DNA from: Bdellovibrionales bacterium RIFOXYD12_FULL_39_22 | GTDB taxonomy: Bacteria > Bdellovibrionota > Bacteriovoracia > Bacteriovoracales > Bacteriovoracaceae | Length of the DNA stretch: 64,000 bases | Assembly: GCA_001770205.1 (NCBI GenBank) | Contig: MEQL01000038.1 | Coordinates: 1 to 64,000 of the forward strand | Direction: 5' to 3' | Part shown: positions 33,230-39,648 of the stretch, piece by piece | Layout of the letters: every line of letters begins with the position of its first letter | Numbering within the stretch: the stretch's first letter is position 1 | Notes under the pieces: model-generated | Told to the model about the DNA's origin: nothing | Databases searched by the model: none | What the model saw: the letters and a program-made list of their open reading frames with translations, nothing else | Position numbers and translations under genes: made by a program

Positions 33230-33559
33230 ATGCAGCAAAAAAATCATGATAGTGATAATGGAGAACAATCTAGTGTGATGGCGCTTGCGTTTAGAGGATA
33301 TTGGTTTTTTGGATGGGCGCTACCAACGTTGTTTGTAATTCGGGAGATGATAGAAAGGCCGACGAATAAAATATTTATTTTTTTTGGATGGCCAGCAATA
33401 TATGCAAGCGTAATTCTGACGCGTTTTATTGATGTACGTTTTTATAAAGGTACTACGATGGATGGTGAGCCGGCCACAAGTAAGCATCTCTTGTCACATG
33501 CTATTCGTTTTTTACCATTTCCGCTTGTTGGAATTTTGATTACTGCTTTTTTAAAATAG
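33230..33559 (+). CDS. Small hypothetical membrane protein (~3 TM)
   Basis: Strong SD GGAGGG; three hydrophobic segments; 3 bp before the TPS gene. Confidence 0.7.
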   Translation: MQQKNHDSDNGEQSSVMALAFRGYWFFGWALPTLFVIREMIERPTNKIFIFFGWPAIYASVILTRFIDVRFYKGTTMDGEPATSKHLLSHAIRFLPFPLVGILITAFLK

Positions 33560-33562
33560 AGG

Positions 33563-35758
33563 GTGGTATTGAGAAAAATATATAGTTTTATTTTGCCTCT
33601 TATATTGGTCATTGCGGTAGTGGCGTATTTTATCGTGCCATTGATCGATTCATTAACTTTGACTTGGTTTGCTCGAGATATAGATAAGAGAGTTATTCTT
33701 GTTCACTCTACATTAAACGATTCCTTAGTTGAAATGGTCAAAAATAAGCAGCGAAAAAAAATCGAAGTATTGTTTAACAGAGTTATTCAAGATGAGCGAC
33801 TTTATGCAATGGCCTTTTGCTCCACAGATGGAAAGTTTGATGTAAAAACAGAGACGTTTTCACAACTGACTTGTGTTTTACAAGATACTTCAAAGCAAGT
33901 AGCGCTTCCTGCTGGGGCCGTTAACATTGCGGCAATTTCAATTGTCGATGACGAAAATGTTAAACTTGGCGAGCTTGTTCTTGTCCATGATCTTAGTTTT
34001 ATTGAACGAAGAAGTAGTGAGACAAGAGAATATGTCATCTATTTTTTTACTGGCCTAGGAATAGTAATATCTTTTTTAACAGTTATCTTAATAAAGATCA
34101 GTTATCGTGGATGGTCGTTATCATTAAAAAAAATCTTAGATGAAGATTTTATAAGCGGAACAAAGCAAAAAAGTCCGGATTTTGATTTTGCACCGCTGGT
34201 ACAGCATCTGAGAAAATATTTTATAGAATTTGATAAAGAGCGAAGAAGTAGAGACGATGAGCGAATAAGTTGGACGCCTAAAAGCTTGAAAGATATTTTA
34301 AACAAAGAGCTATATGGGGATGAGGTAATTATTGTTTCCAATAGAGAGCCTTATATCCATGAATTTAAAAATGGCCGGCCAGAAGTATTGTTTCCGGCAA
34401 GTGGAGTTGTTACCGCGCTTGAACCAATTATGAAGGCCTGCTCAGGGACATGGATTGCACATGGAAGTGGAGGGGCAGATCGCGAATTTGTTGACAACAA
34501 AGATTCTATAATGGTTCCACCAGGAGAAAATAAATATAAGCTGAGAAGGATTTGGTTAACGCAAGAGGAGGAAAATGGTTACTATTTTGGATTTGCCAAT
34601 GAGGGACTTTGGCCACTTTGTCATATAGCACATATACAACCAGTATTCAGGCTAGAAGATTGGGAGATGTATAAGGCCGTTAATCAACGCTTTGCCCTGG
34701 CAGTAAAGGAGGAGGCAAAAAGCGAAGATCCTGTCATCTTGGTACAAGATTATCATTTCACCCTTCTTCCTAAAATGATAAAAGATTTATTACCAAAGGC
34801 CACAGTAATTACTTTTTGGCATATTCCCTGGCCCAATCCAGAGTTTTTTGGAATTTGTCCTTACAGAGAAGAGATACTAGAAGGATTATTGGGAAGCACA
34901 ATTCTCGGCTTCCATACACCATTTCATTGTAATAATTTTCTAGATACTGTTGATCGATATATGGAGTGTCGGGTTGATCGCTCATCTCTTAATATTTCGT
35001 ATAATAAAAAAATTACATCTATAAACAACTATCCTATTTCTATCGAATTTCAACTTGGGAAAACTGTTACAAATCATTCAGAAGAGAATGCGTTGATAAA
35101 AAAAATGTACGGGATAGGAGAAGATGTTTTGATTGGAATTGGCGTGGATAGAATGGACTATACCAAAGGAATTCTAGAGCGTTTTTTATCGATTGAGAGA
35201 TTTTTTGATAAGTATCCGGAGTGGAAAGGTAAATTCTCATTTATTCAAATTGCAGCACCGACGAGAAGCAGTATTAAAGAGTATCAAAAATTTGGCAATG
35301 AGTTAAAAATAACGGCGGAAAGAATTAATACCAAATATTCTACGAAGAATTGGCCGGCAGTGATTTTACTCGCAGAGCATTTTAACCATCATCAAGTAAT
35401 TGAGTATTATAGACAATCGACCCTATGCTTTGTTTCCAGTTTACATGATGGAATGAATCTGGTGGCCAAGGAGTATATTGCCGCAAAAGAAAAAGAAGAC
35501 GGAGTGTTAATTCTTAGCCAGTTTACTGGTGCGGCAATGGAACTTCCTGAGGCGATTATTGTTAATCCATACAATATTGATCAGTGTGCGGATGCTATTA
35601 AAATGGCATTGGATATGCCAGAAGCCGAAAAACATGGCCGAATGAAGAGCATGCGCAGTTATGTACACGAATTCAATGTCTATCGCTGGGCCGGTCGAAT
35701 GTTGCTGGATGCTGCTCGTATTAGAAAGAGAGAAAGAATTTTGAGGACACAGCTTTAG
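33563..35758 (+). CDS. otsA: Trehalose-6-phosphate synthase (GT20) with N-terminal 2-TM/periplasmic domain
   Basis: [52 protein letters not shown]; ~250-aa N-terminal extension with two TM helices. Confidence 0.93.
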
Positions 35759-35761
35759 ATT

Positions 35762-36499
35762 ATGAAAGGATATAATTGTTTGGAGTTTTGGAAGGTTTTT
35801 GAGGGAAAAGAAAAAGTTTTTTTTCTTTTTGATTTTGATGGAACATTGGCCCCACTTTGTAGGCATCATACAAAAGCAAGGATGTGTAGAGGAGACGCAG
35901 TGATATTGCAAAAACTAAAGGCCAGATATCGAATTGGAATTATTTCTGGTAGATCATTGCGTGATTTAAGAAGACTGATTCCCTTTAAAGTGGATTTTTT
36001 AGTGGGAAATCATGGAATGGAAAACCCCTTTTTTCCAATAGTAAATAAAGAAGAGATTGTGCGAGAGATGCGTCAATTGGCTTTGTTATTAGCGGATATG
36101 TTTCCAAGTGTTATCATTGAGCAAAAAATAGTTAGCATTGCCTTGCATGTTCAAAGGGGGGGAGGATCAAAAAAATTATTAGAAAAATTAAAAATTTTTT
36201 TAAAAAATTTTCCAGAATTAAAAATAGTCGGGGGAAAGAACGTAGTAAATGTACTGCCAGCAATGTCCATGGCCAAGGGGGATGTTGTCCGACAGTTAAT
36301 GGTAAAATTACCAATGACCCATTTTATCTACTTCGGTGATGATGTTACCGATGAAAGTGTTTTTAATATATGCAGTCAGCGATTACATACAGTGCGAGTT
36401 GGATGTCATGTTCGATCTCGTGCCCAGTATTGTCTACGGCATCAGGGAGAAGTATTTCCGTTGTTAGAAAAAATCATATGGAGATACTGTGGGAAATAA
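35762..36499 (+). CDS. otsB: Trehalose-6-phosphate phosphatase (HAD)
   Basis: DFDGTL, ISGR, GNHGME, KG, GDDVTDE. Confidence 0.92.
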   Translation: MKGYNCLEFWKVFEGKEKVFFLFDFDGTLAPLCRHHTKARMCRGDAVILQKLKARYRIGIISGRSLRDLRRLIPFKVDFLVGNHGMENPFFPIVNKEEIVREMRQLALLLADMFPSVIIEQKIVSIALHVQRGGGSKKLLEKLKIFLKNFPELKIVGGKNVVNVLPAMSMAKGDVVRQLMVKLPMTHFIYFGDDVTDESVFNICSQRLHTVRVGCHVRSRAQYCLRHQGEVFPLLEKIIWRYCGK

Positions 36500-38297
36500 A
36501 AACAATATGCAAGAATTTGATCAATATAGGATGGGGATAATTGGTAATTGTTCATTTCTTGCCAACATAGACGCCCATGGGAGCATCTGTTGGTTATGTT
36601 GGCCGCATGTTGATGATCGGCCAATTTTTAATTCCTTGCTTAATGAAGTAGGCGGGGCAAAATTTCAGATAAGGCCGGCAGGAAATTTTTTAACTTCTCA
36701 GCATTATTTGAGAAATACAAATATTTTAGTAACGGAATTTAAAAGTGATGATGGGGCATTTCGAGTTATAGATTTTGCTCCACGATTTAAGTTGTTTGAT
36801 CGAAATCATCGACCGCTATCGATTTTTAGAAAAATTGAACGAATTTTTGGTAATCCTCAAGTTGTAATTTCTATCGATCTTGCAAGACGCAATGGTGTTG
36901 ACTTAATTTTGCCCATATTGGGTAGTAATCACTTAACATATAGGGCAGATGACATAGATATTCGATTAACAACAAATGTTTCCAAGTCAAATATTTTAGA
37001 AGAGTTACCCTTCACTCTAACAGAAGATAAATATCTTGTTTTAACTTGGGGAGAACATTTACAGGCCTCTTTGGAAGAAACATTTAATGATTTCTTTGCG
37101 CGAACCGAAAATTATTGGCATGATTGGATTAGAAGGACGACGCTTCCATGCATTTATCAAAAAGAGTTGATTCGATCGGCCCTGATTTTAAAATTACATC
37201 AGGATGAGGATTCGGGGGCGGTGATAGCCTCTGGAAATACAAGTTTGCCAGAATTTCCAGGAAGTGGCCGGAATTGGGACTATCGCTTCTCATGGATTCG
37301 TGATTCCTATTTTACACTTTCTGCCTTGCATTCCCTCGGGCATTTTTCAGAGATCGAAAGATATTCGCACTTTATTCAAGATATTGCGATTAAAGCAAAA
37401 GATAGGATTCATCCGGTTTATAAAATTAATGGAAGTCCACCCATTCCAGAAATAGTTGATTTACATTTGCAAGGATACAAGTCCAATGGGCCGGTGCGTT
37501 TTGGGAATGAGGCGTATAATCAAATACAAAACGATGTTTATGGCCAAATATTACTATCACTTTTGCCTCTATATTCTGATCAGCGAGTTGACGATAGAAG
37601 TCCTCGACCTTCTAAAAAATTAGTAATGTCATTGTTGGAGAAAATAGAAAGGACACTATTAGAAAAGGATGCTGGGATTTGGGAATTTCGCGGAAAAACC
37701 ATGGCCAATTGCACGACATCTCTTTTTAGATGGGCCGGAGCTAGGGCCGCATTAAAGATCTCTCAAATTATTTTTGATGATGATATGCACATTCGCGCAC
37801 ATGAACTTTTATATAAAAGCAAGGAGGCAATTGAAGAGTGTTATTCTAGGGCCGAGAATTGCTTCTATGCGGCCTCAGATGTTAAGTTTTTTGATGCTTC
37901 AACATTACTACTAATTAATATGAGTTATCTTGATAAGGTGACGGATAAGCAAAGGGCAATTGGCCACTTGCGGAGAATTGAACAAGAATTATCGGCACAG
38001 GAAGGATTGTTTTTTAGATATAGGGAGAATGATGATTTTGGTGAGACGAAGGCCGCTTTTTTGATTTGTAGTTTTTGGTTTATTGAGGCATTGGCCACTC
38101 TTGGTTTTGTGGATGAAGCAATAAAAAAACTTGAAAAAGTTATTGGTTATTCAAATAGCTTGGGTATTTTTAGTGAGGATATTGACCCAACTACTAAGGG
38201 CCAGTTGGGGAATTTTGGCCAAACTTATGGCCATGTTGGCCTTATTAATGCTGTTTTTAGAATTGCAAAAAAAGTTGATGGAAATATTTTTGATTAA
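36489..38297 (+). CDS. Glycoside hydrolase family 15 (trehalase-like)
   Basis: IIGNC, TSLPE, RNWDYRFSWIRD, QNDVYG, DAGIWEFR, AFLICSFW, GNFGQTYGHVGLI. Confidence 0.92.
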   Translation: MGNKNNMQEFDQYRMGIIGNCSFLANIDAHGSICWLCWPHVDDRPIFNSLLNEVGGAKFQIRPAGNFLTSQHYLRNTNILVTEFKSDDGAFRVIDFAPRFKLFDRNHRPLSIFRKIERIFGNPQVVISIDLARRNGVDLILPILGSNHLTYRADDIDIRLTTNVSKSNILEELPFTLTEDKYLVLTWGEHLQASLEETFNDFFARTENYWHDWIRRTTLPCIYQKELIRSALILKLHQDEDSGAVIASGNTSLPEFPGSGRNWDYRFSWIRDSYFTLSALHSLGHFSEIERYSHFIQDIAIKAKDRIHPVYKINGSPPIPEIVDLHLQGYKSNGPVRFGNEAYNQIQNDVYGQILLSLLPLYSDQRVDDRSPRPSKKLVMSLLEKIERTLLEKDAGIWEFRGKTMANCTTSLFRWAGARAALKISQIIFDDDMHIRAHELLYKSKEAIEECYSRAENCFYAASDVKFFDASTLLLINMSYLDKVTDKQRAIGHLRRIEQELSAQEGLFFRYRENDDFGETKAAFLICSFWFIEALATLGFVDEAIKKLEKVIGYSNSLGIFSEDIDPTTKGQLGNFGQTYGHVGLINAVFRIAKKVDGNIFD

Positions 38298-38365
38298 GAG
38301 TCTTGAAATAATACTTGGCGATTAATTTTTTTATTTTGAATAGATTTTATAAATTGGAGGTGATT

Positions 38366-38602
38366 ATGATTATGGATGGTTTACAGCTAACAATCGTTGG
38401 TGTTGGTACAGTTTTTTCTTTTCTTATAATACTTGTGTTATTGCTTAAATTAATGTCAAAAATTCTTCGGCCATATACTGAAAAGGAATATGCTAAGTAT
38501 TTGGCCGATCAAGAAAGGGCCACTCTATCTAAAACGTCATCTTCGGAAGACTCCGCAGTAGTTGCGGCCATAGCGGCCGCTATTGAGATGCATAAAAAAT
38601 AG
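38366..38602 (+). CDS. oadG: OadG-family Na+-pumping decarboxylase gamma-like subunit
   Basis: SD GGAGGT; GLQLTIVGVGTVFSFLIIL single TM; C-terminal VAAIAAAI..H. Confidence 0.8.
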   Translation: MIMDGLQLTIVGVGTVFSFLIILVLLLKLMSKILRPYTEKEYAKYLADQERATLSKTSSSEDSAVVAAIAAAIEMHKK

Positions 38603-38711
38603 GTTCTATTTTTTTTAGTCCAAACCCCACTTGGATACCACTGTTCTCAAAAGGGGATTCACTTTGATTCCACTTTGCCCAAAATGCACCGGCCAAATTA
38701 GAGTGATTCGC

Positions 38712-38724
38712 CAATTACTTGATA
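38712..38724 (-). promoter_or_regulatory. IHF binding site
   Basis: TATCAAGTAATTG on minus strand matches WATCAA-N4-TTR; ~40 bp upstream of the sigma54 -24 box. Confidence 0.6.
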
Positions 38725-38762
38725 ATTCGACCACAACATTCACTTTTTGTTGCTGTGCGGCT

Positions 38763-38778
38763 TGGCACGTGTCGTGCA
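38763..38778 (+). promoter_or_regulatory. Sigma54 (-24/-12) promoter
   Basis: TGGCACGTGTCGTGCA: TGGCACG, GG-N10-GC spacing, one mismatch to TGGCACG-N4-TTGCW. Confidence 0.7.
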
Positions 38779-38788
38779 AATAGCATTT

Positions 38789-38965
38789 ACAAGAAGTTGG
38801 TTGGCCCGACAGGTTTTTTGCCTTGATCAATCAGAGACGGTATGTCCATTCAAGCAATCCCACCTTGGCCAGCCTCAGTAACGGGTATCAGAATTGGTGC
38901 CTGCCAGAAATATCTAATATCCCACCTTTATGGCGTATAAGTTTTTGATCAAGGCAAACCTCTAT
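38789..38965 (+). ncRNA. Candidate sigma54-dependent structured small RNA (or 6S-like rod)
   Basis: Perfect 14-bp inverted repeat 38817-38830/38945-38958, inner G-U-containing stems, twin ATCCCACCTT; no plus-strand gene follows. Confidence 0.55.
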
Positions 38966-38982
38966 TTTATTTAAATAAAAGA

Positions 38983-39648
38983 TTACTCAAGTTCGTCCCA
39001 GTCAATTTCATTAGAAAGGGTTACCCCCGAAAGAGTTCGATCCTTTTCTTTTTTTATAAAAGGGAAGGTGATTTGATGGGTGTTTGGAAAATCAAGGCCA
39101 TGAGATATTACGATGGTTTTAGGAACAAATGATTGCAGGGAGGTGTAGAAGTAATCCGCAGGAAGATCATTGATAAATAATTCACTCTCGTAGGATTTTG
39201 CTTCTTCTTTTTCAAGCGATTTGTCTATAGTGACAAGGTTTTCTGGGGCCATAGGTCTAGTTGAGCTGTTTTTGATTACTATCGCTCCTTTGATTTTATT
39301 TCTGGCCACTTCATTGGTTAGATTCCAGCTGGCGATATTGAAAAAATCCAAAAAAAGAGTGGAGCTATTATATTTTATTTTTCTCGGTAGAAGCAGTGCT
39401 TGGAGAAACTTTCGAGAGGAAGGATCTTTTGCCCGTTTAGAAATTTTTTCTGCGAAGTGGCTATCTTCGATTCTGATTATATAGGCCCCGGGATTTTTAG
39501 TGGAACGATACAGCATGTATTGAAAGGCAATGCTGTAGAGGTTAAAAAGCTTGTGTTGGTTTAGGTGGATGTGCGGGTGCGAGTCATCAGTGTCAACAAG
39601 CATTTTTACCGCTTCGTAGAGTTCTTGCTTTGAAAGATCTTTTTTCAT
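38983..39648 (-). CDS. Hypothetical protein
   Basis: 221-aa ATG ORF filling the gap; no recognised motif. Confidence 0.65.
   Translation of the reverse strand: MKKDLSKQELYEAVKMLVDTDDSHPHIHLNQHKLFNLYSIAFQYMLYRSTKNPGAYIIRIEDSHFAEKISKRAKDPSSRKFLQALLLPRKIKYNSSTLFLDFFNIASWNLTNEVARNKIKGAIVIKNSSTRPMAPENLVTIDKSLEKEEAKSYESELFINDLPADYFYTSLQSFVPKTIVISHGLDFPNTHQITFPFIKKEKDRTLSGVTLSNEIDWDELE

Follow-up and report, generated by a model that had tools for sequence, protein, structure and literature searches.

Comparison across related genomes points to a structured RNA gene, very probably real and driven by sigma-54, on the forward strand of the 64,000-nt stretch of DNA analysed here (the window). In one predatory family, 67 of the roughly 150 genomes searched carry a conserved element preceded by a sigma-54 promoter sequence, and the element apparently represents an uncatalogued family of structured RNA under predicted sigma-54 control. 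The preliminary description of this DNA had proposed an undescribed, ORF-less structured RNA gene on the plus strand, linked to sigma-54 and IHF; covariation, an excess of G-U pairs and conservation of the promoter now argue for this proposal. No description of the RNA was found in the literature covered on predatory-bacterial sRNAs (mostly open-access articles, exclusive of the supplementary motif tables of large surveys), and the accessible text of PMC11789641 reports routine Rfam annotation only. Regulatory RNAs of predatory Bdellovibrionota have barely been described so far. In this family the promoter is defined, the fold is backed by covariation and obvious sites for mutation are at hand (P1, GAAU and the C-rich loops), so that post-transcriptional control of the life cycle becomes directly testable in any cultured predator carrying the RNA.

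Promoter and predicted transcript

The elements on which the proposal was built, that is, an IHF consensus, a -24/-12 box, an inverted repeat, an inner stem and two decamers, were all present where they had been placed (Table 1). The C of the -12 element lies at 38777, predicting a transcription start at 38789; the -12 box of the source copy is GTGC rather than TTGC. The sequence of the box was thus confirmed as described, and the start near 38789 is its predicted consequence. The IHF site, judged by the consensus WATCAANNNNTTR, was likewise confirmed, on the minus strand. As also described, no plus-strand ORF of at least 60 aa follows the promoter at this locus, and the next gene is convergent.

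Table 1. Coordinates of the predicted RNA gene and its neighbours within the window
Feature	Position	Strand	Remarks
OAD-gamma gene, 95 aa	38315-38602	+	Upstream neighbour of the RNA
Candidate enhancer half-sites for a sigma-54 activator	38674-38697		Suggested by leader motif enrichment
IHF consensus site	38712-38724	-	Exact match to WATCAANNNNTTR
Sigma-54 -24/-12 promoter sequence	38763-38778	+	TGGCAC-N5-GTGCA
Predicted non-coding RNA	38789-38972	+	About 175-185 nt; both ends predicted
P1 (pseudoknot helix), 5' strand	38799-38806	+	GGUUGGCC; pairs with 38867-38874
P2 closing stem, 5' arm	38817-38830	+	Core GCCUUG/CAAGGC
P2b inner stem, 5' arm	38840-38849	+	In MFE; sequence variable in the family
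C-rich motif 1	38857-38866	+	AUCCCACCUU; predicted single-stranded
P1, 3' strand	38867-38874	+	GGCCAGCC; directly after the first C-rich motif
P3 hairpin	38883-38902	+	GAAU tetraloop at 38891-38894
C-rich motif 2	38919-38928	+	End of a long, G-poor single-stranded loop
P2b and P2, 3' arms	38930-38958	+	From the fold and from pairing in the family
Conserved hypothetical gene, 221 aa	38983-39648	-	Convergent; next to the EF-G gene

Among 45 homologues found blind to the promoter, 43 carried a strict -24/-12 box, placed 21-29 nt ahead of where the model begins, and the remaining two carried a box with a one-base variant; the box was also present in all five homologues found later. The 20 training copies were left out of this tally because they had been selected through their promoter. 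An IHF-like site (at most one mismatch, 25-65 nt upstream of the -24 box) was detected in 31 of 65 homologues, against a mean of 8 and a maximum of 13 in shuffled sequences. The leaders of the family were also enriched in two motifs, TTTGRCC (0.54 per leader vs 0.03 after shuffling) and TGRCMC (1.22 vs 0.16), which may be half-sites for a sigma-54 activator; the leader of the source copy contains one TTTGRCC-type site and no TGRCMC. The source genome encodes rpoN and gave at least 11 strong activator-domain matches. With respect to the marks of a stand-alone sRNA gene under sigma-54, such as those of GlmY, CrcZ, Qrr and Pxr, the locus thus has a correctly spaced -24/-12 box together with IHF and enhancer-like sites. 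Other strong intergenic sigma-54 boxes of the source genome lie mostly before short genes, and many of these start like signal peptides (G000:C39:342914 (+), C40:39008 (-), C31:6281 (-), C39:30585 (-), C37:6662 (+) and C9:10124 (-)).

For the transcript itself, dinucleotide shuffles of 38789-38965 gave an inverted repeat of at least 14 bp, as in the perfect closing stem described earlier (38817-38830/38945-38958), in none of 1000 cases, and a direct repeat of at least 10 nt in 9 of 1000. Folding of both strands gave z-scores of -1.78 for the plus strand and -0.99 for the minus strand, a modest signal for a single copy, and the case for an RNA was therefore built on comparison. Rfam scanning of the element region (38400-39300), in which a match to 6S RNA had been considered, returned nothing beyond chance matches (E 1-7) and no RF00013 match at E<=10; a scan of eight homologue loci gave no match. 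The covariance model of the family matches at 38790-38963 with 107 bits, a score to be read with the copy itself in the training set. Beyond the closing stem, 51 of 65 copies have a U-rich tract.

Distribution and genomic context of the family

Homologues were collected stepwise. BLAST of 60 relatives yielded one informative match of 27 nt, which belonged to a full homologue with its own promoter. A promoter-plus-motif pattern was found in 25 of 151 family genomes, against 4 with the reversed control; after L031, L049 and L050 were removed from these 25 matches as unrelated and the divergent variants L045 and L046 were kept out of the training set, 20 copies were aligned. A covariance model of the RNA only was then run on 150 family genomes and detected 64 copies, spread over 62 of them; the scores left a clean gap between 35.7 and 24 bits. 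A second model, made from 65 sequences, was applied to 80 family genomes in which no strong match had been seen before and added five of them; in 80 genomes from other families it gave no match at E<1e-3. The weak matches below 26 bits had no promoter at the expected spot (29 loci listed, five of them being the new strong matches). Viral contigs, scanned with a pattern, contained 28 matching loci, and the model recognized none of these. Of the 18 loci from a metagenome 19-mer scan, one was identical to the source element and 17 lacked the promoter or the layout; a loose promoter plus GRYTGG pattern, run over 251 genomes of the phylum, was too unspecific. Of what the preliminary description had proposed to seek in related genomes, covarying stems and a conserved upstream -24/-12 box were found.

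Named records among the relatives of the 221-aa neighbour were Bacteriovoracaceae or Bacteriovoracales with few exceptions, and the searched family was therefore taken to be Bacteriovoracaceae. A clear RNA match was present within 3 kb at 12 of 45 loci of these relatives, and at none of the 13 loci titled Bacteriovorax sp. When 28 genomes were placed on a tree from three proteins, which was rooted at the midpoint and had several weak nodes, seven of nine non-carriers formed one clade (support 1.0) and the other two fell among carriers. The distribution fits vertical inheritance plus loss or divergence beyond detection, and the predicted RNA gene is conserved in one branch of Bacteriovoracaceae.

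The RNA element is single in the source genome, which disposes of the case of many dispersed copies (a MITE) raised at the outset, and two copies were found in only 2 of 62 genomes. One of these, G029, carries a diverged tandem pair about 150 nt apart (L134:1191-1350 and 1501-1658), and the other, G077, two diverged copies (L042 and L177); each copy has its own promoter. More distant forms were also observed. A variant in genus g89 (L045:1145-1297 (-) and L046:1411-1564 (-)) has the sigma-54 promoter sequence, CCUACCUU and the GAAU hairpin, together with a different closing stem and a terminator, and is without the standard P1; its model score is weak (16-19 bits), and GAGGUA at its 5' end could base-pair with that same motif. 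The locus L111:3736-3892 (-), beside the 221-aa gene, has the promoter, P1 and a closing stem of other sequence, without the GAAU hairpin.

The neighbours of the RNA belong to many unrelated clusters, the commonest being a cysteine-desulfurase-like gene upstream (by eye) and the 221-aa gene downstream; the latter lies closer than any other ORF, in one orientation or the other, at 16 of the 65 loci. Downstream, the first ORF is convergent with the RNA at 48 of these 65 loci, and often ends within about 50 nt. Since the neighbours vary and the downstream ORF is mostly convergent, the RNA is no leader or riboswitch of a fixed gene. An ATG frame of at least 10 codons occurs in 37 of 65 copies, but the column consensus holds no conserved ATG. 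The 221-aa protein, which is family-wide and often encoded beside fusA, gave no Pfam match; a P-loop/helicase fold was set aside, since all its structural look-alikes were of low confidence and sub-threshold. In many relatives the desulfurase-like gene lies directly upstream of the RNA; in the window, a trehalose cluster (a sensor-like N-terminus fused to glycosyltransferase 20, trehalose phosphatase and GH15) and the lone OAD-gamma gene stand at 33230-38602, between the Rrf2/cysteine-desulfurase-like genes and the RNA. This segment is probably an insertion.

The convergent arrangement, with downstream genes so often ending close by, would also fit an element that is no functional trans RNA at all, whether it serves the convergent gene as a terminator or 3'-UTR structure, is a mobile repeat or arises as a cis-antisense by-product. 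Such an origin is extremely unlikely in view of the low copy number, the unrelated nature of the adjoining genes, a distribution that tracks the species tree, and a promoter and G-U bias that both belong to the plus strand.

Predicted fold

The family supports a long closing arm and a hairpin at its tip. In a structure-free MAFFT alignment, 89.8% of the cells of the proposed stems were paired, against at most 53% for slid controls, and 91.0% were paired among the 64 distinct sequences. Seven pairs reached E<0.05 against 100 tree-simulated alignments, all of them within the proposed P2 and P3, and four P2 pairs stood above the tree-simulated null; counts for P2 and P3 taken from alignment A3, which was fitted to these stems, are inflated. 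The strongest covarying pair is the closing pair of P3, which occurs in four forms, and the letters of its GAAU loop are kept in 63-64 of 65 copies. The perfect 14-bp stem of the preliminary description thus corresponds to P2, and its second stem was found as the inner stem P2b (38840-38849/38930-38938), within the MFE structure. With the P1 strands blocked, the P2/P2b arms have a median of 20 bp across 65 copies. Across the family, G-U pairs numbered 58 and A-C pairs 11, indicating that the plus strand is the RNA strand, as had been argued earlier from G-U pairs in the source copy.

A further helix, P1, connects the 5' end of the RNA to the large loop. It starts at +4 to +12 in all 65 copies, and its pairing in the family is GGUUGGY/RCCARCC. 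Its six core pairs were 97% paired in the 64 distinct sequences, the helix being absent from the model. A P1 helix of at least 6 bp can be formed in 63 of 65 copies, against 36% of shuffles, and one of at least 7 bp in 60 of 65, against 14%; in the variants L042, L177, L162, L173 and L130 both strands change together. P1 fell short of significance in the column covariation test because it varies little. The distance from P1 to the GAAU loop is 14-16 nt in 56 of 65 copies.

P1 replaces two elements of the initial drawing that use its strands. The 5' GUUGG/CCGAC hairpin amounts to just -5.2 kcal/mol, and its strand pairs family-wide with 38867-38874, the P1 duplex in the source copy being -14.4 kcal/mol. 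The apical UGGC/GCCA stem is absent from both the MFE and centroid structures, and the tip is formed instead by the hairpin with the GAAU loop. As the 5' strand of P1 stands before P2 and its 3' strand within P2, a pseudoknot results if both helices form together. On the grounds of this complementarity the RNA likely folds into a pseudoknot, although P1 could represent an alternative conformation instead. Some local 5' hairpin at least as stable as -3 kcal/mol is available to 31 of 65 copies, so that the 5' end may also adopt another fold. The probable pseudoknot and the GAAU hairpin were both missed in the initial reading.

Aptamers and ribozymes typically have pseudoknots, invariant tetraloops and helices conserved in sequence, and the strand order P1, P2, P1', hairpin, P2' is that of HDV-like ribozymes, which also possess P3/L3, P1.1 and a short J4/2 with the catalytic C. 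The RNA has these general characters and this strand order, and might thus be a ligand-binding or catalytic trans RNA, either self-cleaving or storing c-di-GMP as proposed for merRNA of Bdellovibrio, a precedent within the phylum (accessible text of PMC3627812). We consider this very unlikely: neither the element nor the eight homologue loci matched a riboswitch or ribozyme family in Rfam, no junction base other than GAAU is invariant, and the divergent L111 retains P1 and P2 without the GAAU hairpin. An HDV-like ribozyme in particular was rejected, the alignment having neither the hallmark columns nor any counterpart of P3/L3, P1.1 or the short J4/2, and its linker being 48-86 nt long.

Possible modes of action and comparison with known RNAs

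The decamer ATCCCACCTT is present twice in the source copy (38857-38866 and 38919-38928), as described, and had been taken as the defining feature of the RNA. In the family it is the least conserved part: mean column conservation was 0.74 and 0.68 for the two motifs, against 0.90-0.96 for the helix cores and GAAU (44 non-redundant copies), and its best-looking targets were not conserved. Motif 1 reads CCYACC in 47 of 65 copies, with a mean unpaired probability of 0.81; motif 2 reads CCYACC in 20 and AYCUU in 39 of 65; both read CCYACC in 17. Copies such as L170 and L173 are without CCYACC in motif 1, yet retain fold and promoter. Both loops stay open and contain hardly any G (3-5%, compared with 16% over the whole RNA; 3% in the loop of motif 2), and this is the constant feature. 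Two other roles of these sequences were rejected: a base triple between motif 1 and the purine tract of P2 (14 G at column 270, just 4 C at column 102), and pairing with the 16S rRNA word AAGGUGGG, an 8-mer match expected by chance.

The weak conservation of the decamers, together with the lack of a conserved mRNA target, favours protein binding over pairing with ribosome-binding sites (RBSs). We therefore prefer the reading, put at somewhat less than an even chance, that the RNA acts by binding a protein, as decoy or scaffold; the conservation of helix sequence, tetraloop and spacing speaks more for a folded surface being recognized than for pairing through a seed. According to this model, an enhancer-binding protein, aided by IHF, would fire the -24/-12 promoter, the sequences of which are present. 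The long P2/P2b arm and the P3 hairpin with its GAAU loop, both established by covariation, form, and the 5' GGUUGG would pair back to CCAACC in the big loop, a conserved complementarity presumed to co-fold with P2. P1 would tie down the 5' end and keep the two G-poor, C-rich strands open. The protein would recognize a surface made up of the sequence-conserved helix cores together with the GAAU loop and the open strands, and the RNA, once its promoter is on, may titrate or carry this candidate protein. A wider proposal is speculative and in our view rather unlikely, that of a new RNA class in which, in a predator without Hfq, a pseudoknot-closed ring with GAAU and two G-free strands titrates an RNA-binding regulator, so that sigma-54 signalling is linked to switching between the attack and growth phases.

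As to the protein, Hfq was not found in any of 31 RNA-bearing genomes, most of them more than 90% complete, and neither RapZ-like nor Ro/TROVE proteins were found in five. As hosts appear to be without Hfq and RapZ, the partner of the RNA would be a new post-transcriptional regulator, or else the sRNA would work unaided in a new way. CsrA is present in 80 of 80 genomes; a sponge of the CsrB/RsmZ type was rejected, the multiple loop GGA motifs being missing (of 44 non-redundant copies, 4 have GGA in one of the two loop regions and none in the other). Separately, the RBS region of fliM was found to be near-invariant (28 of 29 relatives, with or without the RNA, have a sequence of the CCYAGGAGGGG type; L250:430-453, corresponding to about 84730-84752 of G000:C38, outside the window, and L403-L431). 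It can form a tiny hairpin with AGGA in the loop and, by the general CsrA motif, resembles a CsrA site over the Shine-Dalgarno sequence.

The rival to protein binding is an Hfq-independent base-pairing sRNA, in which the scaffold keeps one or two C-rich seeds open for blocking G-rich RBSs in the manner of RsaE; the preliminary description had suggested this through CCACCU/AGGUGG pairing. That part which concerns the RNA itself held up: the motifs are predicted to be unpaired (0.81-0.83) and are anti-SD-like, their variation is mostly C to U and is tolerated by G-U pairing, exact loop-to-loop repeats of at least 8 nt occur in 12 of 65 copies (about 2% of shuffles), and the missing Hfq agrees with this mode of action. 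The part which concerns targets did not. The decamer has a perfect complement at the RBS of a source-genome gene that we take, from its own sequence and operon position, to be atpC, but only 2 of 19 relatives with the RNA have AGGTRG at this site. A search of five carrier genomes gave 104 AAGGTRGG-ATG sites, of which 90 were fetched and 15 were at starts, with no gene recurring across genera. The fliM site paired no better with the cognate RNA (-11.1 vs -11.5) and was equally conserved in genomes without the RNA, and the density of seed complements was alike in 40 genomes with and 40 without a match (p = 0.20). Since both motifs are intact in just 17 copies and no conserved target was found, seed pairing is the less favoured reading and appears doubtful. 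As the targets were sought with one seed pattern in five genomes and at two single genes, a narrow search, loose anti-SD pairing with many targets may still take place. Further candidate sites in the source genome were noted at parB and acnB.

Among known RNAs, 6S RNA (RF00013) resembles the present RNA in length, in part perhaps in the closing stem with a central bubble, and in the CCACCU word in a bubble, which true 6S RNAs of the family carry in the 3' bubble. From this outline, the constrained spacings and the frequent UUGGCA of P1, which is like a -24 box, a second, diverged 6S-like RNA binding RNA polymerase, possibly the sigma-54 holoenzyme, can be conceived, and a divergent 6S had been suggested. 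This is very improbable. The RNA fails the 6S model, with no match at E<=5 at the eight homologue loci; canonical 6S is encoded elsewhere in the source genome (G000:C4:53704-53894, 55.7 bits) and in five of five relatives; and the family model gave no match to six true 6S genes. The GG-to-GC spacing varies over 3-27 nt, which argues against mimicry of a -24/-12 box. To our knowledge a pseudoknot is no part of 6S, and the promoter here is of the sigma-54 type. As for a long rod with a central bubble, the present RNA has a closing arm of median 20 bp and a large open loop, with P1 running across them and no more than a short hairpin as the cap.

The source copy can also draw a bulged-C helix at P1, presumably resembling the Ro60 site, and has pyrimidine-rich loops, as in Y RNA/YrlA. 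This kinship was rejected, as the bulge is not kept in homologues (by eye), TROVE is missing from the five genomes and Rfam gave no match. RsaE/RoxS of Firmicutes shares repeated C-rich motifs predicted to be unpaired (here in 47 and 20 of 65 copies); RsaE is Hfq-independent, and its motifs are able to pair with Shine-Dalgarno sequences (accessible text of PMC2790875). The C-rich seed of RsaE, however, lies in its most conserved region (PMC2790875, same text), whereas the C-rich motif here is the least conserved part, and neither a conserved target nor an Rfam match was found.

Closer in host are the sRNAs of predatory bacteria. The attack-phase sRNAs APsRNA1-7 and merRNA of Bdellovibrio bacteriovorus, of the same phylum, are stand-alone and highly regulated, and none of the eight, as far as the accessible material of PMC3627812 allows comparison by eye, has the P1/P2/GAAU layout. 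In Figure S1 of that article, APsRNA5 by eye has a Shine-Dalgarno sequence followed by an ORF of about 30 codons, and may be the mRNA of a small protein. Pxr of myxobacteria (RF01812), from a predatory relative, likewise has a predicted sigma-54 promoter with an enhancer region, in a host without hfq (accessible text of PMC5684412). It is built otherwise, as three tandem stem-loops (a model of 109 positions) beside the activator pxrR; it gave no match in the Rfam scans of the element and the eight homologue loci, and a genome search for Pxr, run without a positive control, found nothing.

GlmY of E. coli and CrcZ of Pseudomonas are likewise stand-alone, with a sigma-54 promoter and upstream activator sites. 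CrcZ is under sigma-54 control. We know of no pseudoknot or GAAU hairpin in either RNA; neither gave an Rfam match here, and their partners are missing in carriers (RapZ 0/5, Hfq 0/31). According to the accessible texts, GlmY serves as a decoy for RapZ, with glmY under the control of QseF and sigma-54 (PMC7073468, PMC6075780), and CrcZ is bound by Hfq/Crc (PMC5684412). The predicted RNA is thus a member of none of the groups GlmY, CrcZ, Pxr, 6S, CsrB, Y RNA and HDV-like ribozymes, and by analogy it likely works as GlmY or CrcZ does, through titration of a protein.
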